From a virus (Duplodnaviria; Heunggongvirae; Uroviricota; Caudoviricetes), in IMG/VR virus record IMGVR_UViG_2778261593_000004, positions 1 to 12,717 of that record: a stretch of DNA of 12,717 nucleotides. The stretch is one strand, 5' to 3'. Below the pieces are notes generated by a model. That model did not search any database. It was not told the origin of the DNA and was given only the letters and a program-made list of their open reading frames with translations. Below, piece after piece: positions 1-12,717 of the stretch. Within the stretch, counting starts at the first letter, position 1. The number at the start of each line of letters is the position of its first letter. The position numbers and the translations under genes were made by a program.

Positions 1-101
1 TAAGTATTCTGCGCAATTTCCCCGACGGTCGCCGGTTCGGTGACGCTTAATTCATTAAACACCACTCTGGCGGTTTCGGTCATATCCTGCTGTTTTAGCA
101 T
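1..101 (-). CDS. Partial CDS (N-terminal 33 codons, continues beyond window start); unknown function
   Basis: ATG at 101..99 preceded by AAGGA-rich stretch; frame open to the window edge (MLKQQDMTETARVVFNELSVTEPATVGEIAQNT...). Hydrophilic, so not holin-like. Lies just downstream of the terminator that follows the Q-like gene. Confidence 0.35.
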   Translation of the reverse strand, partial: MLKQQDMTETARVVFNELSVTEPATVGEIAQNT

Positions 102-224
102 GTCTTTTTTCCTTTTCTGGTTAACGTGACATACCAATAACTCTTGTCGAAAAAGCCAGCAAGCTGAAAGACCGATATTCGGAACCACCAGCGCGTTTAA
201 TGTTCTGTGCCATTTTTCAGGCAT

Positions 225-246
225 AAAAAAACCCGCAAAAAGCGGG
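225..246 (-). terminator. Rho-independent terminator downstream of the Q-like gene (possible tR'-equivalent)
   Basis: Stem cccgc (232-236), loop aaaaa, stem gcggg (242-246); on the minus strand the stem is followed by a run of 7 T (231-225). Located about 80 nt after the Q-like stop. Confidence 0.55.
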
Positions 247-325
247 CTCTTTCAAATGTCCATGTCTGCTATTCGCCTCGCGGTACAGCTTTGCGAAGCG
301 TACCGGAATTGAAGCAGTTTTTACG

Positions 326-892
326 TCAAAAAGCAATAACTTTTTTCTCTATACCAAAAGCCATAACCATTGGTTTGTACAAAATAAATTCTGCCACCTT
401 TAGCCAATGCTCAATGCGTCTTTCACAGGTTCTTAAACTCCATTCCGGGTGTGCATCATTCAGCAGTTCAGCCATTTTGCGCTTAGTCATCCCCCGCCCC
501 ACATAACGCTGACTCAGGACATTGAGCAGCCCGGGATAACCGGCCAGGGCTTCACCAATAACCCTGTCGATTATTAACGCCTCTGAATCGGTACAATGTG
601 CCAGCCAGCTTTTTTGATTGCCGTTGATCATATCCCGCAAAAAAGCCTCAAGTTCAGGTTTGTCCAGGCCCGCTTTTTTCATCCTCCGGAGCGCCTCGTT
701 AATTGCCGTTTTTGTCAGCTTTTTAGAGGTCAGTAATTGGTTGAACATATTTCCCGTCTTACCGCCGCCAATATACGACCAACGCCCCCACATACGCAGT
801 TTCCCCTGGAGCCAGACACTTTCCAGCGTTTTCAGGCGTAAATGCTCACCGCTTTTGCCTGTAATTTCCGGGTATATCATATTTACGCTCAC
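326..892 (-). CDS. Putative late-gene antitermination protein (Q-like)
   Basis: 188-aa ORF. GTG start at 892 overlaps the rusA stop as GTGA (alternative ATG at 880). Sits immediately downstream of rusA and upstream of an intrinsic terminator, the canonical Q position in lambdoid phages. Family assignment is from memory of Q-like prophage antiterminators, not verified. Confidence 0.55.
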   Translation of the reverse strand: MSVNMIYPEITGKSGEHLRLKTLESVWLQGKLRMWGRWSYIGGGKTGNMFNQLLTSKKLTKTAINEALRRMKKAGLDKPELEAFLRDMINGNQKSWLAHCTDSEALIIDRVIGEALAGYPGLLNVLSQRYVGRGMTKRKMAELLNDAHPEWSLRTCERRIEHWLKVAEFILYKPMVMAFGIEKKVIAF

Positions 893-1248
893 TCACTTTC
901 AATTTTGTAAATCTTCACGCCCAGCCGCCCACCAGGAACGACCTGACCGCGCACTATATTGATTTCATCAAACTGCTCGTCGTCTATGAGTAGTCCCGCA
1001 TGCGTCAGCGCATCCAGTGGAGCTTTCAGGATATTGTCCAGGTCACGGCGACGCTTATCCGGTGGCTCTGCAATAATCTTTATCGCCAGCCTTCCGGACA
1101 GGTTTAACTTCAGCCGCTGCTGGCGAACAATGAGCGCCACATCACGGCGATAACGCTCACCGGATTTTGATACAAAATATGTGCTGCCACGACGTCGCCA
1201 GTAGGTGTTCACCGTCGGCGGGTAAGGCAAAACAAACTCTATACACAT
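889..1248 (-). CDS. rusA: Crossover junction endodeoxyribonuclease RusA (Holliday junction resolvase)
   Basis: 119 aa; N-terminal LPYPPTVNTYWRRRG and central DKRRRDLDNILKAPLDALTHAGLL match the RusA pattern (compare K-12 RusA LPWPPSNNRYYR ... [22 protein letters not shown]). ATG at 1248 with AAGAGG 6 nt upstream. Confidence 0.85.
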   Translation of the reverse strand: MCIEFVLPYPPTVNTYWRRRGSTYFVSKSGERYRRDVALIVRQQRLKLNLSGRLAIKIIAEPPDKRRRDLDNILKAPLDALTHAGLLIDDEQFDEINIVRGQVVPGGRLGVKIYKIESE

Positions 1249-1260
1249 CAGTAACCTCTT

Positions 1261-2307
1261 TTACCCGAGCACGCCGGTTGCAAAGGCGTGATCAAGAAAA
1301 CGAAAAATTAAATCAATCTGGGAACCATGCTTTTCTTCGAACGCCAGCGGGTCCGCATGAAGCTCGTTGTGATGCTCCCGACACAGCGGTAGCGTGAAAA
1401 TATCGTGGGCTTTTGTCCCCATTCCGCCCTGACCGTGACCAATCAGGTGATGGGGATCGTCGGCTGGCTTACCACAACACGCACACGGCTGTGTCTTTAC
1501 CCAGCGAGTGTATTTCTCATTTATCCAACGGCGACGTTTAGGCCGCTTCATGAAAGATTCAGGAGACTCCGGATCAACGGCAATACTGACCACCGTCTTT
1601 TCCTGTGGCGGGTTTTGCTGGTGGGCGTGAGGCAGCGGCGCAAGATTTTTTGTGCGCTGCTTCATTATGCTGGTGGCAGTCTGCTCTCCCGGTATGATGT
1701 CGCTTTCGCGGTACACTGAGCGGATTTTTTCCGCACGCAACCCCAGAGAACGACGCAATACTGTCTCAGGTAATGCGTCCGCCACCTGATTGCAGACCGC
1801 CCACCAGGATAATTCAGCCAGCGATAATTCCCGCTCCTGTGTGCCATTCATTGCATGGCGTATGACGTCAGTCATCCAGGCTGCCAGGTTTTGTTGAGCA
1901 AGTTGCTCAAGTGATTCGGATGTCTGGTCACGCAGCTGGTTGTCGCAGTGCCAGCACAACACCATTGCGCCGGTACCGTAACGATGTATGACGGTTTCAC
2001 TGTGATGGTAGTCACCATGAGGCCACTGGCAGGATTTGACATGACGCAGGAGCCAGTCAGACAGTGCACCAGCGCCGCCGGCAGCACGAATCACCCGCTC
2101 ATCGCTGAAAAATGGCAGTAATGATTTATCTTCCGCCAGCGGCTGGCGAACGGCGGGAACAACTCCGGACGGCAGACCGCGCATGCTTTTTGGCTCCGGT
2201 TCAACCAGCACTCTGCCGTTATGGAATACCTGCATGGATTCACGACCTGGCTTAACGATAACCACCCCAAGTTCCGGCACCAGAACAGGTCGAAGTAATA
2301 CCCGCAC
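1261..2307 (-). CDS. DUF968-like prophage protein (YdfU-like) with C-terminal Cys/His-rich HNH-like motif
   Basis: 348 aa; C-terminal CACCGKPADDPHHLIGHG...LPLCREHHNELHADP metal-binding motif. GTG start 1 nt after the stop of the upstream ORF with GGAGG embedded in that ORF's last codons (translational coupling). Same neighbourhood as ydfU in Qin-type prophages (from memory). Confidence 0.7.
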   Translation of the reverse strand: MRVLLRPVLVPELGVVIVKPGRESMQVFHNGRVLVEPEPKSMRGLPSGVVPAVRQPLAEDKSLLPFFSDERVIRAAGGAGALSDWLLRHVKSCQWPHGDYHHSETVIHRYGTGAMVLCWHCDNQLRDQTSESLEQLAQQNLAAWMTDVIRHAMNGTQERELSLAELSWWAVCNQVADALPETVLRRSLGLRAEKIRSVYRESDIIPGEQTATSIMKQRTKNLAPLPHAHQQNPPQEKTVVSIAVDPESPESFMKRPKRRRWINEKYTRWVKTQPCACCGKPADDPHHLIGHGQGGMGTKAHDIFTLPLCREHHNELHADPLAFEEKHGSQIDLIFRFLDHAFATGVLG

Positions 2308-2308
2308 G

Positions 2309-2581
2309 TTACCTCCAGATGCGTTGCTGGAATGTGCGGGACGGACGCGGTGGGCGTTCGGAATAAGGGAGTCTGACGTAGATTATCCAGTGACGATAAT
2401 CGAGGCTGAGGGCTTTCCTAAACTCATACCCACGTCTGCGGTAGTTATGAATCAGCCATTCGGCCTGTTCTTCAGTGCAGGGGTCGTGCTGATACCAGTC
2501 ATATTTGAATGTGTGAGAACACCGCCCGTGCCTGCTGGCACGAACGGTATCAGAATTGTGTAATTTGGTCTTGTGCGCCAT
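2309..2581 (-). CDS. Small prophage protein (90 aa), rem-like by position only
   Basis: ORF with ATG at 2581, stop TAA directly abutting the downstream GTG start; basic, Cys/His-containing. Weak RBS. Identity not recognised. Confidence 0.5.
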   Translation of the reverse strand: MAHKTKLHNSDTVRASRHGRCSHTFKYDWYQHDPCTEEQAEWLIHNYRRRGYEFRKALSLDYRHWIIYVRLPYSERPPRPSRTFQQRIWR

Positions 2582-2629
2582 CTGTTTTCTCTGCTGGCGC
2601 AGCAGGTGCCAGTTGTTCAGGCTAGCGCG

Positions 2630-2675
2630 ACAGATTGTAACTCATAAATAATAAAAAAGACAAAATCTGCCAAAA
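2630..2675 (-). promoter_or_regulatory. Candidate sigma70 promoter for the 90-aa/ydfU-like/rusA/Q gene string
   Basis: On the minus strand: TTGTCT, then about 18 bp of AT-rich spacer, then TACAAT, in the AT-rich gap between the 273-aa gene stop and the 90-aa ORF start. By-eye match only. Confidence 0.25.
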
Positions 2676-2695
2676 AAAACTAAAAACAAGTTCGG

Positions 2696-3517
2696 TTAAG
2701 ACACCTTCCTGAAAATTACTAGCGGTGTCATACCATAGGAAGTTTCGCTCCTCCCAATCATTCCACGAATACCTTCAAGCATATAGTCTATTGTGCCTCT
2801 GATTTCGTCAGAAGGAAATATTGACTCTGAAACTGTCTCGTCACTTATATCCGGGAGCGCATCTATAACACCGATGACATACCATTCACCAGGTATTCTG
2901 GAACCATACTTTAATGCAAGATTTCCCACATCTAAAGCTAAATCATCAGCCTTGACCGACATCCAGAATATATTTTCTTGATCGTCAAGAAGCTCTATCT
3001 GTGTAGAGAACGGGAGCAAAGAAAACATGTCAGCAGCCATTTTAGCATGATAAATTTCTTCTTGAATATCTTTTTTCTGAGCTGGTGATTTAGTCTGCTT
3101 TAGTTCTTTTTGTTTTGCATCTTTATATATAGGGAGAACATCATGAGCCATTTTCACATCAAATAATTTGATATGCCCTTTTACCATCACCAGACTTCCA
3201 ATTTCTGCATTTTCTAAGCTCGTTGCCACCAAGCCTTGTTCGTGCAACTTATCAAAAAAATTTAATGGTAAAGACCATGATGAGTCAAAATGCCGCTCTT
3301 GCGTTTTTGCAAAAGAATCCCCCGCATTTTTCCTGGCATTAAATAATGAAACGCCACCTTTAAGTTCATTTAATGAATGCTCAGAACTGGACGAGATTTG
3401 TTTTACAGCATTCAATACTCCTGATGGAAATAATTGCGCAGTGAAGTAACCTACGCGCTCTTTGTCAAGATAAAGGTAATCAAATAGTGAATCTACGGCT
3501 TGACAATCTTGATCCAT
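2696..3517 (-). CDS. Hypothetical protein, 273 aa, unknown function (AT-rich cargo gene)
   Basis: Long ORF. Start chosen at ATG 3517 (MDQDCQAVDS...) because GAGGAG lies 7 nt upstream; the track's upstream ATGATG at 3586 has no SD. No transmembrane stretch or recognisable catalytic motif seen. Visibly lower GC than flanking phage genes. Confidence 0.7.
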   Translation of the reverse strand: MDQDCQAVDSLFDYLYLDKERVGYFTAQLFPSGVLNAVKQISSSSEHSLNELKGGVSLFNARKNAGDSFAKTQERHFDSSWSLPLNFFDKLHEQGLVATSLENAEIGSLVMVKGHIKLFDVKMAHDVLPIYKDAKQKELKQTKSPAQKKDIQEEIYHAKMAADMFSLLPFSTQIELLDDQENIFWMSVKADDLALDVGNLALKYGSRIPGEWYVIGVIDALPDISDETVSESIFPSDEIRGTIDYMLEGIRGMIGRSETSYGMTPLVIFRKVS

Positions 3518-3659
3518 TGGCATGCTCCTCTTTGATCCTTGCTTTTTCCTCAGCAATTTTTCTTTGCTTTTCTTCGATTTCATCATACATCAATTGCATT
3601 TCAGTGATGTCGAACGGCTTTGAACCACTTTTAAGCAATCTCACCAGTTTGCGGATCAT
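3480..3659 (-). CDS. Small ORF (59 aa) overlapping the start of the 273-aa gene
   Basis: ATG at 3659 with GAGGAG 7 nt upstream; MIRKLVRLLKSGSKPFDITEMQLMYDEIEEKQRKIAEEKARIKEEHANGSRLSSRRFTI; stop at 3480 overlaps the downstream start by 38 nt in another frame. Below the track's length cut-off. A promoter-like AT-rich stretch lies upstream (about 3665-3760, minus strand). Confidence 0.3.
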   Translation of the reverse strand: MIRKLVRLLKSGSKPFDITEMQLMYDEIEEKQRKIAEEKARIKEEHANGSRLSSRRFTI

Positions 3660-3770
3660 TGCGTATCTCCTCTTAAATATCGTTCAAATTATGTTCAAAC
3701 AAATTCTCAAACACAACAATGTAATGCATCAATATTTGGGTGCGTTGAGGATGCCTGACACATCAGAGGT

Positions 3771-3792
3771 GGCGAGGGATTTCTCCCTCGCC
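3771..3792. other. Perfect 9-bp stem-loop immediately 3' of hok (hok mRNA 3' structure)
   Basis: ggcgaggga (3771-3779), loop tttc, tccctcgcc (3784-3792); 8 nt downstream of the hok stop on the minus strand; no U-tract follows, so not a canonical intrinsic terminator. Confidence 0.45.
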
Positions 3793-3799
3793 AGGTCTC

Positions 3800-3955
3800 T
3801 TACTCCTCAGGTTCGTAAGCTGTGAAGACAGCGACCTCCGTCTGGCCGGTTCGGATTCGTACCTCACAGAGGTCTTTCCTCGTTACCAGTGCCGTCGCTA
3901 TGACGGTTAAACAGATGACGATCAGGGCGATTAACATCGCCTTTTGCTGCTTCAT
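3800..3955 (-). CDS. hok: Hok-family type I toxin (HokD/RelF-like), 51 aa
   Basis: Translation MKQQKAMLIALIVICLTVIATALVTRKDLCEVRIRTGQTEVAVFTAYEPEE is an essentially exact Hok-family sequence. Below the ORF-track length cut-off, so found by manual translation. Confidence 0.9.
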   Translation of the reverse strand: MKQQKAMLIALIVICLTVIATALVTRKDLCEVRIRTGQTEVAVFTAYEPEE

Positions 3956-4011
3956 AGCCTGCTTCTCCTTGACCTTTCGGTCCGTAAGAGGCTAATCTCT
4001 ATGTGTCGCAT
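3952..4011 (-). CDS. Short leader ORF (19 codons) translationally coupled to hok (mok-like)
   Basis: ATG at 4011..4009, MRHIEISLLRTERSRRSRL, TGA stop overlapping the hok ATG (ATGA). Hok loci normally carry an upstream overlapping reading frame (mok) that controls hok translation. Confidence 0.4.
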   Translation of the reverse strand: MRHIEISLLRTERSRRSRL

Positions 4012-4075
4012 AGATATGGCCTCAGATTAATGTTAAGCGTCTTGCCGGACGCCGAATGTTAACTGGGGCTTTTCT
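3969..4075 (+). ncRNA. Candidate Sok-like antisense RNA with its promoter (boundaries approximate)
   Basis: Plus-strand TTGACC (3969-3974), 18-bp spacer, TAATCT (3993-3998), giving a transcript antisense to the hok leader/mok-like start; downstream nested inverted repeats (4033-4062) and ctatctgcc/ggcagatag (4073-4109). The 3' end is not defined by a clean terminator. Confidence 0.3.
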
Positions 4076-4511
4076 CTATCTGCCTTTTGGTGTTCATGCC
4101 TGAGGCAGATAGCCTCAAGCACCCGCAGCAATTCTAACTATCCAATAGATCAATGCCAACTTCTTTTCCTGCAACATCTCTCAACATAAGTGACCAAAAT
4201 TCACCCAATCAGCACAAAAGAAACATTTAAAGCGTGAATGCTACCGAACGTTCATTTCAATTACATCGTTTTGATTTTTAACAGTTTTCACCTCAACAAA
4301 TCAAATGGCATTAGCATTCATCATGGAAGAAAGACTGATAAAAATGATCATTTTCAATGACTTATGATCACACCGGGTATTGCCAAGTCATTCCTTTTAC
4401 GCCAGGATACCCACAAGTAAGTAGTCGAGGAGAGTTTGCCAATTTTTGCGATATAAATTTCAATGTCCGAAGAACCATTAATTGTTAATTGATTCTGTAT
4501 AAGGTTTTAAC

Positions 4512-5609
4512 ATGACAATTTCATATATTCCTATTCTGAAAGCGAAGCGTTCTGAGTTATCAGCTTTATCGCAGCTATCCATTGAAAAGAAATCAAAAAT
4601 TTTGCCATTACTCGAAATTGAACCAGTGCCAATTGACCCTGATTCAGGTATTGCCTTAAAGAGTTATAACGAGACTCTTATAGAGTTCGGAAAGAAAGTC
4701 TCAAAATCTTGCTCAGATATGCAAGGTGTTTATATTGATGGATTATTAATTGAAGAGCATTTTATTTCGCCTGAAGATCATTACCCTATAATAAATGCGG
4801 TTAATCAAGTTAGAGATATGGGGATAAGAGTTATTCCTGTCAGTTCACCAACTCGCCCATCTAACTATAAAAGAGCGATTGATGAATTAATACAGAATGA
4901 AATATGCTTGAGATTAACCACGTTAGATCTGGTTAACCCACAATTAATAACGCATTACATTCATCATCTGGGAATTCCTTTATCAAATATTGATATAATT
5001 ATTGACTTAAGAGATGAGTTAACCGAGGATAAACTTAATTCCGGCGAACTATATACTTTGGCAATGGGATTGATAAACAATCTGGCGCACCTCAATGAAT
5101 ACAGAAAAGTGATTCTTTCTGGGGGTTCATTTCCTACAGATCTCAGTGATATTTCTGTTGGTCTATATTCTCAACCTCGAATCGAGTGGATTTTATGGCA
5201 GAGTTTAATGAATAGAAAAGAACTTGCCAGAAATGTGATTTATAGTGATTATGGAGTACAGCACCCCGACTTTAATAGGCTTTCGACGCGATTCCCTAGC
5301 GTATCTGCCAGCGTCAGATACTCTGGAGATAATGACTTTTGGGTATTTCGAGGAAGAGTAGCTAATCGCTTTGGTTATGAACAATATGGTAAACATAGTG
5401 AGGATATTCTTGCTCATCGAGAATATTCAGGGCCTACATTCTGTGCGGGAGATAGAGACATAGAATATTATGCAAACGAGTATCAAGCCTACAAAGCCAA
5501 TCCCTCTGGTAACTATAAATTTGGTAGCCCAGAGGTATGGCGTAGGATTGGGCAAAACCATCACATAACTAAGGTTGTTGAGCAACTCGCCACTCTTTAC
5601 GGGCTTTAA
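4512..5609 (+). CDS. Beta-protein family protein (sce7725-like), 365 aa
   Basis: ATG 4512 with AAGG 7 nt upstream; N-terminus MTISYIPILKAKRSELSALS matches the Y-x-P-I-L-K opening I associate with the Pfam Beta_protein family (memory, unverified). AT-rich; the only sizeable plus-strand gene between 326 and 10249. Confidence 0.8.
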   Translation: MTISYIPILKAKRSELSALSQLSIEKKSKILPLLEIEPVPIDPDSGIALKSYNETLIEFGKKVSKSCSDMQGVYIDGLLIEEHFISPEDHYPIINAVNQVRDMGIRVIPVSSPTRPSNYKRAIDELIQNEICLRLTTLDLVNPQLITHYIHHLGIPLSNIDIIIDLRDELTEDKLNSGELYTLAMGLINNLAHLNEYRKVILSGGSFPTDLSDISVGLYSQPRIEWILWQSLMNRKELARNVIYSDYGVQHPDFNRLSTRFPSVSASVRYSGDNDFWVFRGRVANRFGYEQYGKHSEDILAHREYSGPTFCAGDRDIEYYANEYQAYKANPSGNYKFGSPEVWRRIGQNHHITKVVEQLATLYGL

Positions 5610-6147
5610 GTTTAACTCGAACAGCTTCACGAAGCTCGCCAACATCCATACTATTGGCGAGTTTTGACCATAAGACGCGTTTAGGTTTATTTTTCAAATT
5701 CTGTAGCTCCCCTACATCACTTAATAGGGAAAGCAATTCATCTTTCCAAAGAAGCATTGTTAAGGAAAGTTTGTCCACTTGTGGATTCAACTTGCTAGTT
5801 CGAATTGTTTTTAAATGGATACCTTGCCGTGCACCTTGCGTAACTTGCTTTATCCCCCACCATGATGGAACTATGCTTAAAGCATCATAAAGATGGCAAT
5901 CAGAGACAACCAACGTTACTTTATCCATCACTGATGAGTAATGTTGCACCTGCGCTGGTAATCTGAGCAAGTTATCACTCTTGCTCTTCAACTCATAACC
6001 ATGTATAAGTCCATTGATCACTGCTATATCAGCTCTGCTAGCCCCTAGATTCATCGTAAACTCATCAATGATTAGGGTGTCAGGATCTTTATGATGATCT
6101 CTCAGAATCTTGGCATGCACAGCCTTTCTTACATCAATGTCTCTCAT
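5569..6147 (-). CDS. PD-(D/E)xK nuclease-fold protein (sce7726-like), 192 aa
   Basis: N-terminal region shows hydrophobic-D (TLIIDEF), RADIAVING, then HGYELKSKSD: a D ... E-x-K arrangement typical of restriction-endonuclease-fold nucleases. Weak SD. 3' end overlaps the convergent Beta-protein gene by 41 nt. Confidence 0.75.
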   Translation of the reverse strand: MRDIDVRKAVHAKILRDHHKDPDTLIIDEFTMNLGASRADIAVINGLIHGYELKSKSDNLLRLPAQVQHYSSVMDKVTLVVSDCHLYDALSIVPSWWGIKQVTQGARQGIHLKTIRTSKLNPQVDKLSLTMLLWKDELLSLLSDVGELQNLKNKPKRVLWSKLANSMDVGELREAVRVKLKARKEWRVAQQP

Positions 6148-6179
6148 ACCATAGTTGCGCTTTCATCGACTCTCTCAAG

Positions 6180-6198
6180 CCATGATTCTATATCATGG
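6180..6198. promoter_or_regulatory. Palindromic candidate operator upstream of the nuclease-fold gene
   Basis: ccatgat-tctat-atcatgg, perfect 7-bp arms, centred about 40 bp upstream of the ATG at 6147. Confidence 0.3.
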
Positions 6199-6452
6199 TT
6201 CGCATGAATGCCATTTGATATGACCAGTGGTTAAACATTGCACAGAAAAGTGGATGTGTATTTTAACAAAAGCAATGACGGCTAACCATGTTGGTATGTC
6301 GATAAAATGTTTCAACGTAAGCATTATCTGTTCCGCCCTTTCAGACGGCCTCCTGATGTTCTGAGGGTGCAGAATCCCTCCGGTTAAGGATTTAATAAAA
6401 TTCACTTCTGATTTAAATTTTCAGTATTTTGTTGTCAGGTAGTTTATCGCCT

Positions 6453-6764
6453 TTATGCTTCAGCCTTATTTCTCAGCCATACACAAACAGGACCATCTTC
6501 AGTGTCATGAATGGAACCAATGAACCAGCCATCACCTTCCGGGCGCTCCGGTTTCCAGGAGGCAATATCGGGACCATCTGCGTCCAGATTAAAATTATCT
6601 TCATCCATAGTTCTGATGGTCCATTGAAGATTATTTTCCTCCATCCATGCGTTAAACTCTTCCGTTGAAATATGTTCTCTACCATCACAGAATTTTTCAT
6701 ACTCAGGATGCGTCCAGCAGCCATATTCATCACGTATTACTGGTATTTCTCTAATTTCATTCAT
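6453..6764 (-). CDS. Strongly acidic small prophage protein, 103 aa, unknown function
   Basis: ORF with about 26 Asp/Glu versus about 9 Lys/Arg by hand count; 8-nt overlap with the upstream ORF suggests coupling within the nin-like gene string. Confidence 0.55.
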   Translation of the reverse strand: MNEIREIPVIRDEYGCWTHPEYEKFCDGREHISTEEFNAWMEENNLQWTIRTMDEDNFNLDADGPDIASWKPERPEGDGWFIGSIHDTEDGPVCVWLRNKAEA

Positions 6765-7014
6765 TTCTGTTCTCCCACGTTTTCAGACTTTCACCACAGA
6801 ACGGGCAAAAGCACATTGCAACGCCACGACCGATATATTGCCCAGAGTGAATTTGAGCAATATCTAAGCCTGACTCGCCAGTGTTTATGTTCACACGCTC
6901 CGGGATAAATATCCCTTTACTCTTGAACGTTGGATTTCCATATTCGAGAGATTTTGATAACGCCGCGCACGGCTCTATCTGATTGCCATTAATCTGACAT
7001 TTTGATTCACTCAT
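6757..7014 (-). CDS. Small Cys-rich (zinc-ribbon-like) protein, 85 aa
   Basis: Cys pairs near both ends (SKCQINGNQIEPC ... CFCPFCGE); ATGA overlap with the upstream ORF. Confidence 0.5.
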   Translation of the reverse strand: MSESKCQINGNQIEPCAALSKSLEYGNPTFKSKGIFIPERVNINTGESGLDIAQIHSGQYIGRGVAMCFCPFCGESLKTWENRNE

Positions 7015-7217
7015 TGCTTGAATCCCTCCCGAAGCTGTTCTGCACAGTGCAGCAGCGCATCAGTCACTTCTTTCACCGTAACGAGATCGCCATCGTCCAG
7101 TCCTGCAATTTTTGCGTGCCTGACAAACGCCGCGCAAAGGTCGTTAAACGCCCCAGCCCGCACATCCGCCAAGAAAGCGTTAGCAGCAGCCAATTCCTGG
7201 TAGTCAATCTTGCTCAC
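7011..7217 (-). CDS. Small nin-region protein, 68 aa
   Basis: GTG at 7217 with AGGAGG 6 nt upstream (preferred over the track's ATG at 7247, which has no SD and a larger overlap); 4-nt overlap with the downstream ORF. Confidence 0.45.
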
Positions 7218-7947
7218 TGGTTGCCTCCTGGCAAAGCTGGGCGACAATATCGCGATATTTATTCAGCTCCCGCAGCGCGGCACAGACTCGCTCCCATTTC
7301 CGGATATCACTTTTCGCCCGACGCAGTTCGCGGTTTGCCTGTCGCAGCGATGGCAGAACCAGATTATCCACTCGCTTCTCAAGCGGCTGCACAATGTCCG
7401 CCACAGTTTCTGTTTTAATATCTTCCTGTGTTGCAGCTTCCTGTACTGGTAACGCAACACATGCAGGCTGAGGAAAGGCTTTACCATCAGTTTCCGCTAC
7501 CGATGCCGCTTTCGGCTCTGCTGGTAAATTACCGCCCGGCATGCAGTAACGAAATTTACCGTTCTGATTAACACGAATCAGACGACCTTTGCTGATTGCC
7601 ATTGCCAGCGTTGAAGCCACTTTGCGGGATGTTGTACCGAACAGCGTAGCCAGTTCATCCGCCGTTTGTGGTCCGCGTTGTTCAATCGTCGCGGTTAAAT
7701 CGCACTCTGAGATTTTCGCTACTGTCGCCGTGGTGGTTTCTTCCGGCTGTTCTTCTGGCGCTGGCTGTTCCTGCTGAACGTTGTTATCAGCCACACGCCA
7801 GGTGTATACGCTTTTATCAACGAAGCCAGCCTTTTTCAGTTCCCACAGCTCGTTCAGTACTTCTTCACGACTGATATCAAGTCGCGCAGCCAGCTCTACC
7901 GACGTGGCTTTTCCCATCGCTTTCAGTGCGTCAAAAACTGTCTCCAT
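7204..7947 (-). CDS. Prophage protein with N-terminal winged-helix-like domain, 247 aa
   Basis: Start placed at ATG 7947 ([43 protein letters not shown]) with GGGAGG 8 nt upstream; the track's upstream extension lacks an RBS. Confidence 0.65.
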
Positions 7948-7981
7948 TAAAATTTCCTCCCGGTAAAAATTACTTCTCAAC

Positions 7982-8647
7982 TCAAACAAAACCAGCCGCT
8001 TTCCGGCGTTCATATTCCTGTTTCAGTAACTCAATTGGCGTTGGCCCCGACGGGCGTTTGGGTGCCGCCAGTTGTCGCCGGACTGGCGGAACGCTCAGGC
8101 CGTTACTAACATGCTTTGCCCATTTCGTCAGCTGCCGTTCTGCAAGCCGTTTTAATTCCCCTTCGGTCATCTGGCGCTCAATCCCCTTTGAACGCATCTC
8201 GAGGCAAATGTGATACAGCACAGGCTGAGACCACGGGTATTTATCGCTTCCGTCGTATCGCCAGGACTCGTTGCGCCAGCGTCGGTACTCCTCCATCACG
8301 TTATCCACCGTCAGACCAAATGGATTTGCCCCGCTCTCCGAAATCAGCGCCACAAACTCAGCCAAGTCCGGAGGCCATGTTTCACCTGCCCTGCAACGGT
8401 CCATGCACTGGCGGCAGACCAGCCGGATTTGCTGCTCAGTCATCGCGCCAATCTGTGCAATCCAGAGCTTCGAAGGTGCGGCCCCGTTCTTCTGGGTCCA
8501 GCGGTTCGAATAAACCTCCCCCATGAGTTCCCACAGCTTCCACGCCGTTTCCGTCGCTGATAAATCCATTTTCACGTTCCCACTGCTCACGTGCTGCCCG
8601 AATTTCCTGAACTGCCCGTGATGCGGTGCCACCTGGTGCGGCTGCAT
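7982..8647 (-). CDS. Replication protein P-like (DnaB helicase loader)
   Basis: C-terminal half ([15 protein letters not shown]...[21 protein letters not shown]...[14 protein letters not shown]) resembles lambda P as I recall it (YPWKS...LTDAELRRKAADEL...IPEPVKQLP). The 5' end is uncertain because of a 212-nt overlap with the O-like ORF. Confidence 0.7.
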
Positions 8648-9476
8648 GGCTCACCCCCTTGCTGACTGGTTTAACCTGCGCCCTGACGTGATTTACGTGA
8701 CGGGCGAATTTCTGCTCCCACTGAACCTGCGTAAATACTTTCCCCTCCGCTGCCCAGTAGTCCCGGAAGGCGGCAAGTTCAGCAGGTGTAAATTCCGGCT
8801 CCGGCAAAGCCATCCCCCACACCGCAGCCCGTCGTCGAAAATCCCGTGACGGATGCCAGCTATCGGTCATCGGAAATTTTCCGATGGGTTCGCTCAGGCC
8901 ATCCAGGAATACGGGTGGCACTGCCTGTAACGACAAAACTTCCTGCTCACTGGTCGGAGCACTCTCGCGTGCATTATGTGTGGGGTTTAGATCTTTGGGT
9001 TCCTTTGGGTTCCGTGATCCGTTTTTGGGTGTCTTTGATGGAAAATTTGGGTGTCTTTGGTTATTTTCCATGCAGCTAAGAGTTCCGTTTTTGGGGCTGT
9101 TTTGTGCTGAAACATAACCATTTTCGGTACTGTTTTTATTAACAGTACCAATTTTACCCACCTTTAAAGACTCCCGTTTTTGGGTGTATTCAGGCTCGGC
9201 AACGCTTTCTTCTACACCGATAAGTCGGTACACTACGATTTGCTTTGTTCGGCCTTTTCTCTCACCGGTATCAACAATTAACCCAATCTCCATCAGGTGT
9301 CGTAAGCTGTCCTGCACAGTCTTTTTGTTCAGCTCCGTTACTTCTGCCAGTGCAGATACAGACGGGTATGCACACAAATCGGCACCGCACATATCAGCAA
9401 GCCAGGTCAATACTGACTTACTGGATGAACTGCCGGTTTTCACCTTTTTAGCCCATCGTAGTGCATCGATACTCAT
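8436..9476 (-). CDS. Replication initiator (O-like): N-terminal wHTH domain, low-complexity linker containing origin iterons, C-terminal domain
   Basis: ATG 9476 with AGGGGT upstream (the track start at 9551 is TTG). N-terminus MSIDALRWAKKVKTG...LMEIGLIVDTGERKGRTKQIVVYRLIG is HTH-like; the origin-type iterons fall inside the K/N/P-rich linker coding region, as in lambda O. Confidence 0.7.
   Translation of the reverse strand: MSIDALRWAKKVKTGSSSSKSVLTWLADMCGADLCAYPSVSALAEVTELNKKTVQDSLRHLMEIGLIVDTGERKGRTKQIVVYRLIGVEESVAEPEYTQKRESLKVGKIGTVNKNSTENGYVSAQNSPKNGTLSCMENNQRHPNFPSKTPKNGSRNPKEPKDLNPTHNARESAPTSEQEVLSLQAVPPVFLDGLSEPIGKFPMTDSWHPSRDFRRRAAVWGMALPEPEFTPAELAAFRDYWAAEGKVFTQVQWEQKFARHVNHVRAQVKPVSKGVSHAAAPGGTASRAVQEIRAAREQWERENGFISDGNGVEAVGTHGGGLFEPLDPEERGRTFEALDCTDWRDD
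8982..9191. repeat. Candidate replication origin: iterons, AT-rich tract and 9-bp-arm palindrome, inside the O-like gene
   Basis: Iterons ccgtttttgggtgtctttg (9019-9037), gaaaatttgggtgtctttg (9041-9059), ccgtttttggggctgtttt (9085-9103), cccgtttttgggtgtattc (9173-9191), plus degenerate tttgggt copies at 8994-9010; AT-rich 9106-9165 containing ggtactgtt-tttatt-aacagtacc (9126-9149). Confidence 0.55.
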
Positions 9477-9999
9477 ACGAACCCCTGGCAGACATTTGTT
9501 TATCTGCAAAGTAATATTGGTATTGCTGACGATACGCACGCTTGAAAGCAATGGCTTTTTCTATAAGCTCGTCAGTCTCACGTTCCACAACAGCTGGATC
9601 CGCAAAAAGCAGCCCGGACTCCACCACATCGCCATATTCTTTGTTTAACCCGGCGATCATGTACGTAATGCTTTTTCCGTCAGTAATTTCACAATACAAC
9701 CTGAAATCGCTGATCCGGATAGCCTCCATAATTGCCGGAATCAGCGCCGTGAATTTTTCACGCTTATCCCTGGTGTCGATAGCTTTCCAGCGTTCGAATA
9801 TCTTCACCCTGTTAACGCCCAGCGCCCGTTGATCAACCGCGCCATCATCAAACGTGACGCGATGAACATCGATGTTCGGGCGTTCTTTCAGAGCCCAGAA
9901 TGCTTCCGTGATTAATATCGTCGCCTGCTCCTGCGTCATTCCTGGTCGGCATACCCAGGCATCCAGAGCCTCGCGAGCCTGCTCAGGAGTGAATATCAT
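9448..9999 (-). CDS. YdaT-like (CII-analogue) prophage regulator, 183 aa
   Basis: Segment ERWKAIDTRDKREKFTALIPAIMEAIRISDFRLYC resembles the YdaT core as I recall it (REKIQKLIPAILAIL...RLC); sits directly downstream of the Cro-like gene, as ydaS-ydaT in Rac. Confidence 0.6.
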   Translation of the reverse strand: MIFTPEQAREALDAWVCRPGMTQEQATILITEAFWALKERPNIDVHRVTFDDGAVDQRALGVNRVKIFERWKAIDTRDKREKFTALIPAIMEAIRISDFRLYCEITDGKSITYMIAGLNKEYGDVVESGLLFADPAVVERETDELIEKAIAFKRAYRQQYQYYFADKQMSARGSYEYRCTTMG

Positions 10000-10249
10000 T
10001 GTTCACCGCCAGTGATTCATTCGCTGTAGGCTTAATCCTGCCAATAGTCAAAACCGCATCAGCAGAAAATAATCCGTTTGATGCCAGAGCAATTTTTTCA
10101 GCGTAATTTGTTTCGCCTGTATATTCTGTGCGCGGTAATTTTCCATTATTCATCCATTTGTAGATTGCTCTTTGGCTGACACCGCAAACATCGGCTACAA
10201 CAGAAACGCGAACTGCTTTGATTACATCTGCAAGTGTTGTATGGCTCAT
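9983..10249 (-). CDS. Cro-like HTH regulator (YdaS/DicC-like), 88 aa
   Basis: Start at ATG 10249 (MSHTTLADVIKAVRVSVVADVCGVSQRAIYKWMNNGKLP) with a GAGGGTG SD; HTH-like VSQRAIYKW; divergent from the DicA-like repressor. Confidence 0.65.
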   Translation of the reverse strand: MSHTTLADVIKAVRVSVVADVCGVSQRAIYKWMNNGKLPRTEYTGETNYAEKIALASNGLFSADAVLTIGRIKPTANESLAVNNDIHS

Positions 10250-10328
10250 ATCACCCTCACAATGTGAACTTTGAGTACACAATATAACAGAACTGACAGT
10301 ACATTCAATAGTAAATATCATTGAACTT
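10250..10328. promoter_or_regulatory. Divergent promoter/operator region of the immunity switch
   Basis: 79-bp AT-rich gap between the divergent cro-like and dicA-like starts; repeated GAACT (10265, 10291, 10323) and AGTACA (10274, 10298) motifs; the dicA-like ATG has no SD, suggesting a leaderless or short-leader mRNA. Confidence 0.5.
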
Positions 10329-10748
10329 ATGGTTCATGAAGATGAAGCGCGTAAAGAGTTCGCCAGCAGGCTTGCGCTAGCCTGTGATAATGCTGGTTTT
10401 GAACAACACGGAAGGCAGGCAGAAATTGCCCGTCGAATGAAGCTAACACCCAAAGCGGTTAGTAAATGGTTTAATGGAGAGACAATTCCCCGTCGAGAGA
10501 AACTGAAAGAATTGGCAGCACTTATCGGAACAACACCAACTTACCTTCTGGGGGAGGACACTGAAGAAAGCGGAAGCCTGCGTTTCTATCAGGAGTTAAG
10601 TCCGAGGCAAAAAATCATCATTGAACTTCTTGATGAACTCCCTGACAGTGAAACTGATGAACTTTTAAAAACTCTTGAGGAGAAAAAACAGAAGTACAAC
10701 GCAATTTATGAAGAATTAGCGCGAAAGAAAAAACAAAAAGCCTCCTGA
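10329..10748 (+). CDS. dicA: DicA-like XRE-family repressor, 139 aa
   Basis: HTH region (EIARRMKLTPKAVSKWFNGETIPRREKLKELAALIG); C-terminal LSPRQKIIIELLDELPDSETDELLKTLEEKK resembles K-12 DicA (LSPKELELLELFNALPESEQDTQLAEM, from memory). Supported by a downstream DicF-like RNA and DicB-like start. Confidence 0.65.
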   Translation: MVHEDEARKEFASRLALACDNAGFEQHGRQAEIARRMKLTPKAVSKWFNGETIPRREKLKELAALIGTTPTYLLGEDTEESGSLRFYQELSPRQKIIIELLDELPDSETDELLKTLEEKKQKYNAIYEELARKKKQKAS

Positions 10749-10752
10749 ATCT

Positions 10753-10786
10753 GCATAAATCCGGTAACTTCCCTCCGGGTTTATGC
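10753..10786 (+). other. 12-bp stem hairpin after dicA-like stop, followed by a C-rich tract
   Basis: gcataaatccgg-taacttccct-ccgggtttatgc (one G-U wobble), then ctcctcccccccctcct; no U-tract, so not a canonical intrinsic terminator. Confidence 0.35.
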
Positions 10787-11050
10787 TCCTCCCCCCCCTC
10801 CTGGTACTTTATCTCTCATAAAATGTACTAAAAGTACTTTACATTAGTGAACAAAAAGTACATCATATCAACCAACCCACCCCGTCCCACAGAACGCAGG
10901 GCAATACTTCGAGTTACCAGGCAGTGGTCAGGGGTTAAGTAGCCAGCCCGAGACGTAAGAACATGACGGCAGGGTTCAACTTTAACTATGCAGCAGGTTT
11001 TTGTTCCGCTACCCCGGCGTTAAGGGGATACGGCATTGCGAGGAATCACT

Positions 11051-11257
11051 ATGCAGAAACGAGAACCCGTCATCATCGCGCCAGACTATACCGATGATGA
11101 ACTTTATGAGTGGATGCGCGGGAAGATACGCGCCATTAATGACCTGAAGCAGGCCACTGATCACAAAGAGCGCCTCTCTGAAACACTGGCGTCAGTGACG
11201 CAGGATATTACCGCTCTGGCAAAAAGCGCGGCATTAAACGTTTCGCGAGTGATTTAA
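11051..11257 (+). CDS. Small prophage protein, 68 aa (YdfA/B/C-region analogue by position)
   Basis: ATG 11051 (MQKREPVIIAPDYTDDELYEWMRG...) with GAGGAA 5 nt upstream; first gene after the dicA-like repressor on the same strand. Confidence 0.5.
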   Translation: MQKREPVIIAPDYTDDELYEWMRGKIRAINDLKQATDHKERLSETLASVTQDITALAKSAALNVSRVI

Positions 11258-11281
11258 AACCACCGACTGATGAGGTTGACT

Positions 11282-11920
11282 ATGGAATTTAAAGATTTAC
11301 CAATTTCAATACAGGAAATGGCCGCTGATGTGATTCGCTCGCAACTGGCGCGGAACCCAATGATATTAGTAGATAAACTGTTCATCAGAAATTTATCAAA
11401 TCATGTCCGCAATTCCTTTACCGGACTGTATTCATATTCGTTCACAAACAATCATTGTGTAGAAAATAAAGCAAAACTCATTGCAGAAACGACAGCGCAA
11501 AACATCAACACGAAACCAACGGAAGAAGAAATTGATCAGTTTGCTCATGATGCTGGTTTAAAAAACAAGGAAGAAAAATCGCCATATGCGGGAAACATGT
11601 TTGTTTATGACAACCTTATCCGAATTCGTGGCGAAATTCCGACTGAATACCTGGCAAAAATTCACCAGGCATTACTTAAAAATCTGGAAACGGAAGTATT
11701 TGATGGCAACACCAACGGCTCCTTCGTGGTGTCAGCTCTCGCAAAAGAGTGGGATAAAGATAATCGCTGGAATGTTGCTACATGGTTATTCAGCAACAAA
11801 GCTTCCGCCCTGGAAGCTGCGGCGTGTATTTGCGACCTGCTAAGGACAGACCGCAAATACAACCTGGATGTGTATAGCTATATTTATGCTGAACACTATC
11901 CGCTATGGATTAACTGGTAA
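11282..11920 (+). CDS. Hypothetical protein, 212 aa, unknown function (AT-rich cargo gene)
   Basis: ATG 11282 (MEFKDLPISIQEMAADVIRSQL...) with GAGG 6 nt upstream; visibly AT-rich; no recognisable motif. Confidence 0.6.
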   Translation: MEFKDLPISIQEMAADVIRSQLARNPMILVDKLFIRNLSNHVRNSFTGLYSYSFTNNHCVENKAKLIAETTAQNINTKPTEEEIDQFAHDAGLKNKEEKSPYAGNMFVYDNLIRIRGEIPTEYLAKIHQALLKNLETEVFDGNTNGSFVVSALAKEWDKDNRWNVATWLFSNKASALEAAACICDLLRTDRKYNLDVYSYIYAEHYPLWINW

Positions 11921-12130
11921 TTACAAAGCTGTACCAGCAGGGCCACGACGACCAGCACCACGATTGTAATCAATGATGCCATTATAAAGCGCATTATTTA
12001 ATTTATCGTCGAATGCCGATTCTGTGAGTCCTAGCTCTGAATGAGTTTTTAATAACCCTGATTGCCTGAGTTGATTAACCAGGCATTCAATCTGTTTTTC
12101 AATAAGCGGATGTATTGGCTTGTTTGGCAT
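11921..12130 (-). CDS. Small protein, 69 aa, unknown function
   Basis: ATG 12130 (MPNKPIHPLIEKQIECLVNQLRQSGLL...) with GGAGGA 4 nt upstream; its stop codon directly abuts the stop of the convergent 212-aa gene (TAATTA). Confidence 0.45.
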   Translation of the reverse strand: MPNKPIHPLIEKQIECLVNQLRQSGLLKTHSELGLTESAFDDKLNNALYNGIIDYNRGAGRRGPAGTAL

Positions 12131-12458
12131 TTTATCCTCCATTGAGGTTACTGGTTGAGAATGGAGACCACACGTGACAGCGTGTTGTCGTGCGCCGGAC
12201 ACGGATAAGAATCCGGCACTGACAGTTTACTGAAAGGATATATCCCTGAAAAGTCAGGGCATAACGCGAAAGCGCACGGCGAAGTTATTTCTCCCTCTGT
12301 TGCGTGCCACCGGCATCTTCGACCGTGCGCTTCCGGTTGTGGCAATCCGCGAAATGGCGCGGCGGTAAGTATGGCGAGGCTATCCTTTCCTCGAGATAAC
12401 ACCGGGTTGTCAGGTTGACCATACGCCTGAGTGACAACCCCGCTGCAACAACCCATGT

Positions 12459-12511
12459 TGATTACCTTTTGGCGACATCAGTTTCATTGCTGGCTGATGT
12501 CCGCCCTTTTT
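12459..12511 (+). ncRNA. dicF: DicF-like small RNA with intrinsic terminator (boundaries approximate)
   Basis: ttttggcgacatcagtttcattgctggctgatgtccgccctttttaaag: an 11-bp stem with one bulge (12471-12505) followed by 5 T; pattern resembles K-12 DicF as I recall it (uuuggcgguaucaguuuu...cugccgcccuuuuu); lies between dicA and a dicB-like start, as in Qin. Confidence 0.45.
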
Positions 12512-12672
12512 AAAGTGAATTTTGTGATGCGGTGAATGCGGCTCAGCGCACGCGGAACAGTTAAAACAAGCAACCTTATGGGTGAAATACTCCGGCGTTA
12601 ATTGTTAACTGGTTAACGTCACCTGGAGGCACCAGGCACCGCATCACAAAATTCATTGTTGAGGACGCGATA

Positions 12673-12717
12673 ATGGAAAAGTTATCATACAATGCCAGTA
12701 CGTCTGAACTTCGTTTC
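12673..12717 (+). CDS. dicB: Partial CDS (first 15 codons), DicB-like cell-division inhibitor
   Basis: ATG 12673 with GAGGA 7 nt upstream; MEKLSYNASTSELRF compares with K-12 DicB MKTLLPNVNTSEGCF (memory); continues beyond the window end. Confidence 0.45.
   Translation, partial: MEKLSYNASTSELRF

Follow-up and report, generated by a model that had tools for sequence, protein, structure and literature searches.

A conserved gene pair of an overlapping micro-protein and a DUF6414-family protein, carried as prophage cargo, is a candidate phage-defence or toxin-antitoxin-like module

What is the function of a small AT-rich gene pair lodged between hok and the rem/ydfU-like genes of a lambdoid prophage? 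The pair lies in a stretch of 12,717 nucleotides from a Caudoviricetes virus (IMG/VR record IMGVR_UViG_2778261593_000004, positions 1 to 12,717), hereafter the window, and consists of a gene for a 273 amino acid protein and, overlapping its start, an upstream open reading frame (ORF) of 59 amino acids. A sequence-only reading of the window had described the large protein as an orphan with no recognizable motif, translationally linked to the small ORF, provided with its own promoter and seated in a prophage cargo slot typical of toxin-antitoxin, abortive-infection or superinfection-exclusion functions. The linked pair, its insertion as cargo, the promoter and the typical slots are all borne out here; the orphan status and the lack of a motif are not, as the large protein is a member of the DUF6414 family and, through that family, appears related to DolA of the Dodola phage defence system. 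This conserved pair recurs in more than 100 phages and bacteria and is therefore a good candidate for a phage-defence or toxin-antitoxin-like module.

Conservation indicates that the 59 amino acid ORF is a real gene and an obligate partner of the large gene. A same-strand ORF of 59–79 amino acids overlaps the start of the large gene in all 25 full-length loci compared, which come from different species (Enterobacterales, Dyella, Neisseria, Schmidhempelia, many Alphaproteobacteria, Binatia and Acidobacteria), as well as in 79 of 80 IMG/VR viral contigs, the lone exception being cut at the contig end. The gene is annotated in isolated phages of Acinetobacter, Moraxella and Clostridium and, in RefSeq, as the coding sequence WP_089565161, and its product has a PHROG family of its own (phrog_29688, E = 1.3e-17). 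The ratio of non-synonymous to synonymous substitution rates (dN/dS), computed over the 46 non-overlapping codons of seven gap-free enterobacterial copies (the window and six loci), is 0.10–0.46 wherever dS is unsaturated, and the small gene is thus under apparent purifying selection. The other five reading frames mostly contain stop codons, with one reverse frame open in two copies. Small proteins of this kind share a common layout of a basic N-terminus, a long charged helix and the ending G-[AS]-R-x3-5-[RK]-F-x-[LI]-stop, which reads GSRLSSRRFTI in the window and is fitted by 41 of the 45 distinct tails found among the viral contigs. AlphaFold (AF2) predicts helices at residues 3–10 and 18–48, the second of them charged and coiled-coil-like, followed by an unstructured tail at residues 49–59. 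A profile search of the PDB with the small protein returns coiled-coil matches only, and no Pfam, NCBIfam or PADLOC family matches it.

The two genes are tied together by a fixed overlap and by the ribosome-binding site of the large gene, which lies inside the small gene. Both the overlap and the strong Shine-Dalgarno sequence of the small gene, on which the sequence-only reading had based its proposal of translational linkage, can be read directly from the DNA, and the identical 8-mer AAGAGGAG serves both genes at an equal spacing of 7 nucleotides. When both frames are displayed together, an ATG or GTG codon is found at exactly the 38-nucleotide overlap in 14 of the 25 loci, from Enterobacterales (E. 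coli), Acinetobacter, Moraxella, Dyella and Alphaproteobacteria including Acetobacteraceae. The position of the small-gene stop is identical in all 79 viral loci. In the window, its TGA falls within the F and D codons of the DSLFD motif encoded by the large gene; the general form of this motif, DSx[YF]DF, is nearly invariant and holds the stop in its [FY]-D codons. The G-[AS]-R element of the small-protein tail is kept where residues 1–8 of the large protein vary, so this stretch of the small frame is under a constraint of its own. These features support a genuine and, as judged from the gene layout, translationally linked pair. It would neatly illustrate how an overlapping small gene can be functional while its stop codon is fixed by a motif conserved in the protein encoded downstream. 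A small upstream gene, an overlap of 38 nucleotides and a downstream Shine-Dalgarno sequence inside the upstream gene together form the bicistronic layout of type II toxin-antitoxin modules.

The large protein belongs to a widespread family. RefSeq names it 'DUF6414 family protein', and it matches Pfam DUF6414 (PF19952) at 31.7–32.1 bits (E = 1.3e-7 to 1.7e-7), above the curated gathering threshold of 25 bits, over residues 12–234 of the protein and positions 2–234 of the 283 of the profile. The same family is matched by 57 of 58 aligned relatives (best E = 6.3e-13), and the large protein also matches phrog_9699 (E = 9.5e-71). An exhaustive profile search recovers 1,360 clusters (at 50% identity) at E <= 1e-3, 475 of them at E <= 1e-30; the best 150 clusters are all single-domain proteins of about 254–357 amino acids. 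Invariant residues occur throughout the family alignments, with a very conserved C-terminal motif, GRxxxSYGMTPLxIFR. The AF2 model is reasonably confident (predicted local distance difference test, pLDDT, 81.4; predicted template modelling score, pTM, 0.74) and shows a predicted alpha/beta fold with an oligonucleotide/oligosaccharide-binding (OB)-like barrel, a long helical hairpin at residues 121–166 and a disordered loop at residues 46–71. Foldseek comparison of this model with the PDB and BFVD gave nothing significant, a PDB sequence profile search gave nothing meaningful, and neither of these approaches revealed homology to housekeeping or structural proteins, in keeping with the sequence-only reading. 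NCBIfam and PADLOC contain no match for the large protein, no toxin family was matched in Pfam, PADLOC or the PDB profile search, and the model offers no enzymatic or membrane clue. The OB-like core of the model would be compatible with nucleic-acid or protein binding, which we take as a lead only.

The pair was inserted as a compact cassette into the nin region of the prophage. This region of the window has 99.9–100% identity to lambdoid prophages that carry Stx2e in E. coli of porcine and feral-pig origin. Among 5,426 complete E. coli genomes, 6 have the two genes; most of the rest match by megablast in the flanks only (27% query coverage) because rem and hokD are directly adjacent there. 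Alignment of the window with the empty rem-hokD site of E. coli STEC299 gives a sharp right junction at 3737/3738 and a left junction between 2645 and 2672, so the insert amounts to about 1.07 kb and holds the two genes only plus 78 nucleotides of upstream DNA. G+C content is 0.365–0.40 over positions 2600–3800 as against 0.52–0.56 in the rem/DUF968 flanks, which together with the sok match confirms the AT-rich locus between hok and the rem/ydfU-like genes. The cassette has the attributes of a prophage moron: it is precisely absent from some relatives, deviates in base composition and carries its own promoter. No intrinsic terminator was found by a generic scan of positions 2500–4600, and the stop of the large gene is followed only by T-rich runs, with no strong hairpin. 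Downstream of this stop and upstream of the rem-like ORF, a promoter-like TTGTCT-18-TACAAT is present on the minus strand (2634–2663); lying in or near the left junction, it would belong to the conserved flank and not to the insert. On the other side of the cassette, the hok/sok locus (3800–4160) is intact, with a promoter-like TTGGCA-17-TAGAAT at 4159–4131 and a stem-loop with a 9-bp GC stem at about 3770–3791, 3' of the hok stop.

Enterobacterial copies of the cassette share a predicted sigma-70 promoter. TTGnnT-17-CATAAT is found at a fixed distance from the ATG in 8 of 8 enterobacterial copies (the window and six copies in an alignment, with an eighth, L030 in our numbering of loci, added by a regular-expression scan), while the surroundings have diverged and the aligned copies encode proteins only 35–57% identical to those of the window. 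The block AACATAAT around the -10 hexamer is invariant across the aligned copies, and the leader starting from the window promoter would be about 21 nucleotides long. A generic scan at its threshold reports no promoter upstream of the small gene; the promoter claimed by the sequence-only reading is thus supported by comparison and not by consensus strength. In five copies (L003, L005, L021, L029 and L030) a perfect inverted repeat of 7–10 bp with the core AGAGAAC-N16-GTTCTCT brackets the -10 hexamer, reading AAAGAGAAC-N16-GTTCTCTTT in L029 and L030. The repeat extends from about 45 to 15 nucleotides upstream of the small-gene ATG, is specific to the clade of cassettes that adjoin a repressor gene and looks like a candidate operator. 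The window copy instead has a TTGAAC direct repeat on both sides of its -10 hexamer.

Table 1. Features of the DUF6414 cassette and its flanks (window positions; all cassette features are on the minus strand).
Feature	Position	Strand	Evidence or remark
Inserted cargo cassette, ~1.07 kb	2672-3737	-	STEC299 empty-site alignment, megablast, G+C content
Large gene, 273 aa, product starts MDQDCQ, DUF6414 family (DolA-like)	2696-3517	-	
Small gene, 59 aa	3480-3659	-	phrog_29688, RefSeq, dN/dS, conservation
Gene overlap, 38 nt	3480-3517	-	read from sequence
Shine-Dalgarno AAGAGGAG, large gene	3525-3532	-	7 nt before ATG; inside small gene, codons K-E-E
Shine-Dalgarno AAGAGGAG, small gene	3667-3674	-	7 nt before ATG
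-10 hexamer CATAAT	3688-3693	-	conserved across copies
-35 hexamer TTGTGT	3711-3716	-	conserved across copies
rem-like ORF	2309-2581		flank of cassette
DUF968/YdfU protein gene	1261-2307		flank, beyond rem-like ORF
hokD ORF	3800-3955	-	other flank of cassette
sok RNA	3953-4124	-	Rfam match, 107.5 bits, full

The cassette is cargo ('moron') of temperate phages, satellites and insertion sequence (IS) elements, and gene order supports the assignment of its phage contexts to classic slots for exclusion or abortive-infection genes, as the sequence-only reading had suggested for the window. In Rac-like prophages, a clade with 35% identity lies directly downstream of and co-oriented with a cI/RacR-like repressor gene, divergent from ydaS/ydaT and ahead of kilR/recET, and the same order of repressor and pair is seen in L002–L005 and in Clostridium phage HM T. 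The slot downstream of the repressor holds rexAB in lambda and sieB in Rac. The Rac-like and HM T copies resemble rexAB and the sieB of Rac and P22 in their position 3' of a co-oriented repressor and divergent from the cro/ydaS side. The cassette differs from these systems in having no sequence or fold similarity to anything solved and no predicted membrane component, and the window copy differs further in lying in the nin region and not in the immunity region; unlike the pairs of other prophages, it does not stand behind the HTH_3 repressor of its own prophage. In Bordetella phages the cassette adjoins the integrase, and in Acinetobacter and Moraxella phages it is an insert among tail genes. 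The closest relative, in Enterobacter (57% identity), is found at the edge of an AlpA/DUF927-primase island that also carries a Shedu nuclease, a PemK-like gene and an AAA_15/21 gene. Other neighbours recognized by PADLOC are scattered, individual cases (MmeI-type restriction-modification, IetA, AriA, PD-Lambda-5, MADS and PDC candidates). In three alphaproteobacterial loci (L010, L014 and L023), an IS1595/ISXO2-like transposase gene directly precedes the pair on the same strand (at about 6770–8940 of each locus) with no promoter-like sequence between them, and here the IS element may carry the pair along as a passenger. A collection of plasmids contains no true plasmid copy, and for the repressor-adjacent clade (L029) megablast gives no match among complete E. 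coli genomes.

No third component accompanies the pair. Of the 145 proteins encoded by the three nearest ORFs on each side of the 25 species loci, compared with Pfam, only Peptidase_S24/HTH_3 (4), YdaS (4), YdaT (3), Cro/CI and IS1595 transposase (3) families recur, and neither a Clp-type ATPase nor any other third partner does. Taken together, these comparisons show a conserved and mobile bicistronic module, by prediction with its own promoter, that pairs a micro-protein with a DUF6414 protein.

The defence link of the DUF6414 family is through Dodola. DUF6414 is the domain of one of the two Dodola proteins, the other being ClpB-like (bioRxiv 10.1101/2024.10.26.620412). The system comprises the DUF6414 protein DolA and the ClpB-like DolB (Millman et al., 2022, as cited in 10.1101/2024.10.26.620412 and PMC11514479). 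Dodola is a validated phage defence in Bacillus, Streptococcus and Lactococcus with an unknown mechanism (PMC11514479; 10.1101/2024.10.22.618286). The cassette resembles it in that its large protein is in the same Pfam family as DolA and in that both are two-gene systems on mobile or defence loci. In contrast, the partner in the cassette is the product of a 59 amino acid overlapping upstream gene and not a ClpB/Clp-like protein, the cassette escapes PADLOC, and its Pfam match is weak and does not include the C-terminal GR...YGMTPLxIFR motif. At E <= 1, neither the large protein of the window nor any of 58 family members matches a model of PADLOC-DB v2.0.0, which includes Dodola models. No ClpB/Clp-like gene is found in the window, in its RefSeq annotation or in the prophage, island and phage contexts of the cassette. 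With neither a ClpB-like partner nor a PADLOC match, the cassette is therefore not a Dodola system by definition. A scan seeded with the homologue of Clostridium phage HM T, made in search of a link to DolA of Firmicutes, recovered only HM T itself.

The cassette also resembles type II toxin-antitoxin modules. Its small gene lies upstream of the larger one and appears coupled to it in translation, the cassette has a predicted promoter of its own with a palindrome over the -10 hexamer in one clade, its small protein combines a helical body with a disordered conserved C-terminal tail, and it is carried on mobile elements. It differs from them in the lack of homology to known toxins or antitoxins and of a recognizable DNA-binding domain in the small protein.

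The best explanation of these observations, which we hold with moderate confidence, is that the cassette is a mobile, self-promoted two-gene defence or exclusion cargo made up of a DUF6414 effector and a small regulator. Its contexts make it on balance probable that lysogens express the cassette and that it serves to exclude phages or abort their infection; on the strength of its architecture we propose more tentatively that the small protein is a regulator or works in the manner of a type II antitoxin. Expressed in the lysogen, the cassette would shield host and prophage from other phages, through either superinfection exclusion or abortive infection. In the least certain part of the model, which comes from the architecture, the DUF6414 protein would be the effector or sensor and the small protein its obligate regulator, with a helical and probably oligomerizing body and a disordered, conserved C-terminal tail. 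This tail might dock on the large protein and hold it inactive, with the helix perhaps packing on the hairpin at residues 121–166 of the large protein, and in one clade the small protein might in addition autoregulate the pair via the inverted repeat. Infection would then deplete or displace the small protein and release the effector, the micro-protein taking the place that the Clp-like ATPase DolB has in canonical Dodola. We count the neighbourhood of the window cassette, which adjoins hok/sok and a beta/sce7726 module, as support. The adjacency to hok itself seems incidental, as the cassette is found without hok in many unrelated settings. A broader version of the idea, to which we give clearly less credence, is that such pairs form a widespread and so far unrecognized two-gene anti-phage system ('mini-Dodola') in which a DolA-like effector without an AAA+ partner is controlled by a micro-protein that bears the C-terminal tail and is encoded at the fixed 38-nucleotide overlap.

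Several observations weigh against a defence or exclusion cargo with a small regulator. With about 32 bits, the Pfam match of the large protein is weak, and it omits the 40 C-terminal residues, which are the most conserved; kinship with DolA is seen through the shared Pfam family. No PADLOC model matches either window protein or any of the 58 relatives. Family scans and the PDB profile search give the small protein no known DNA-binding antitoxin fold, and the inverted repeat is absent from the window copy as well as from L002 and L035. The window cassette is co-oriented with the early-right operon, from which read-through could reach it during lytic growth, and many chromosomal loci have ordinary metabolic neighbours. 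The function as such is one that we infer from context and architecture.

The strongest of the competing explanations, though an unlikely one in our estimate, is a plain selfish toxin-antitoxin (addiction) module that stabilizes the prophage, island or IS element and has no role in defence. The coupling of the genes, the operator-like repeat and the helix with its tail fit such a module equally well, the pairing is obligate, the pair follows immediately on IS1595 transposases as their passenger in L010, L014 and L023, and it stands alone amid metabolic genes in several chromosomes. Against this, neither protein resembles a known toxin or antitoxin family, 273 amino acids is big for a type II toxin, and the recurrent lysogen-type prophage slots, the island with Shedu and the family link to Dodola point to defence. 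The two explanations are not mutually exclusive. Some type II toxin-antitoxin modules also act in phage defence, among them relBE, which adjoins hokD in the Qin prophage of K-12.

A function in the service of the phage itself, such as a counter-defence pair, a lysis-lysogeny modulator or a host-takeover factor, is less likely still. It would agree with carriage by many temperate phages, with the orientation of the window copy along the early-right operon and, in Acinetobacter and Moraxella phages, with a place inside the late tail operon. However, the cassette also occurs outside phages, with IS1595, in the AlpA/primase island and among chromosomal metabolic genes; within phage genomes its position varies and is not tied to any functional module; and it has a promoter of its own and a family with a link to a defence system.

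It is very improbable that the 59 amino acid ORF is not an independent gene and either arose by chance in AT-rich leader DNA or encodes the beginning of a large protein that is frameshifted or extended at its 5' end. In the window, the large frame is open for 23 codons further upstream, up to position 3586, which gives a maximal ORF of 296 amino acids in the ORF list, and the long form is annotated in some records (P0026). Six alphaproteobacterial and related loci (L010, L012, L015, L017, L019 and L023) have no ATG, GTG or TTG at the 38-nucleotide position, and their large frame is open 70–140 nucleotides further upstream. Yet RefSeq, PHROG and Pfam agree on the start of the 273 amino acid form at ATG 3517, the PHROG and Pfam profiles beginning at the annotated methionine, and the small frame is conserved across phyla with an independently constrained tail motif, a dN/dS well below 1, a strong Shine-Dalgarno sequence and a PHROG family of its own. 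On this conservation we reject a non-genic ORF as well as a fusion, by frameshift or otherwise. Membership in canonical Dodola (DolA plus DolB), which the Pfam DUF6414 match might suggest, has next to no probability and is refuted by the missing DolB partner, as there is no ClpB/Clp-like or other AAA+ gene in the window, no AAA+ gene recurs among the 145 neighbouring ORFs of the 25 loci, and PADLOC matches none of the 58 relatives.

The DUF6414 family and its link to defence are known; the architecture of the cassette is not described in the literature searched, where the family accession PF19952 and the RefSeq accessions gave no match, DUF6414 is mentioned in one review and no mechanistic paper on Dodola was found. 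This architecture is marked by the micro-protein partner at a fixed overlap, the absence of an ATPase, the conserved predicted promoter and the carriage as prophage cargo, all in a system undetected by PADLOC. A large branch of the DUF6414 family, which counts about 1,360 clusters (50% identity) and is found in at least 80 viral contigs, thus always travels with a conserved micro-protein instead of a Clp-like ATPase and is unseen by PADLOC, the sole detection database tried. If a defence or exclusion function is correct, Stx2e-converting prophages of pig strains would carry a compact two-gene system native to E. coli and a simple model for working out how DUF6414 proteins act; its small size and its origin in an E. 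coli phage would therefore make it a tractable entry to the mechanism of DUF6414 proteins and Dodola.

Two other regions of the window contain genes of related interest. At 4512–5609 (plus strand) there is a Beta_protein/'beta family' gene (Pfam 4e-52; PADLOC PD-Lambda-2_C, 1.3e-41), and at 5569–6147 (minus strand) an sce7726-family gene (NCBIfam 1.7e-56; PADLOC 'cll', 2.4e-28). The two genes are convergent, overlap by 41 nucleotides at their 3' ends and have a G+C content of 0.34–0.41. From these family matches the pair at 4512–6147 looks like a gop-beta-cll/PD-Lambda-2-type defence candidate; no gop/A/B component was found among the small ORFs that flank it. The immunity region (9448–10748) comprises an HTH_3 repressor-like gene (10329–10748, plus strand) divergent from a helix-turn-helix (HTH) gene (9983–10321, minus strand) and a YdaT-family gene (9448–9999, minus strand). 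Downstream of the repressor-like gene, within 10963–11920, are two plus-strand ORFs of 73 amino acids (11036–11257) and 216 amino acids (11270–11920), neither of which matches a Pfam or PADLOC family. They occupy the lysogen-expressed slot, and in the RefSeq relative the same stretch has a 68 amino acid hypothetical protein and an N-terminally truncated pseudogene co-linear with the larger ORF.

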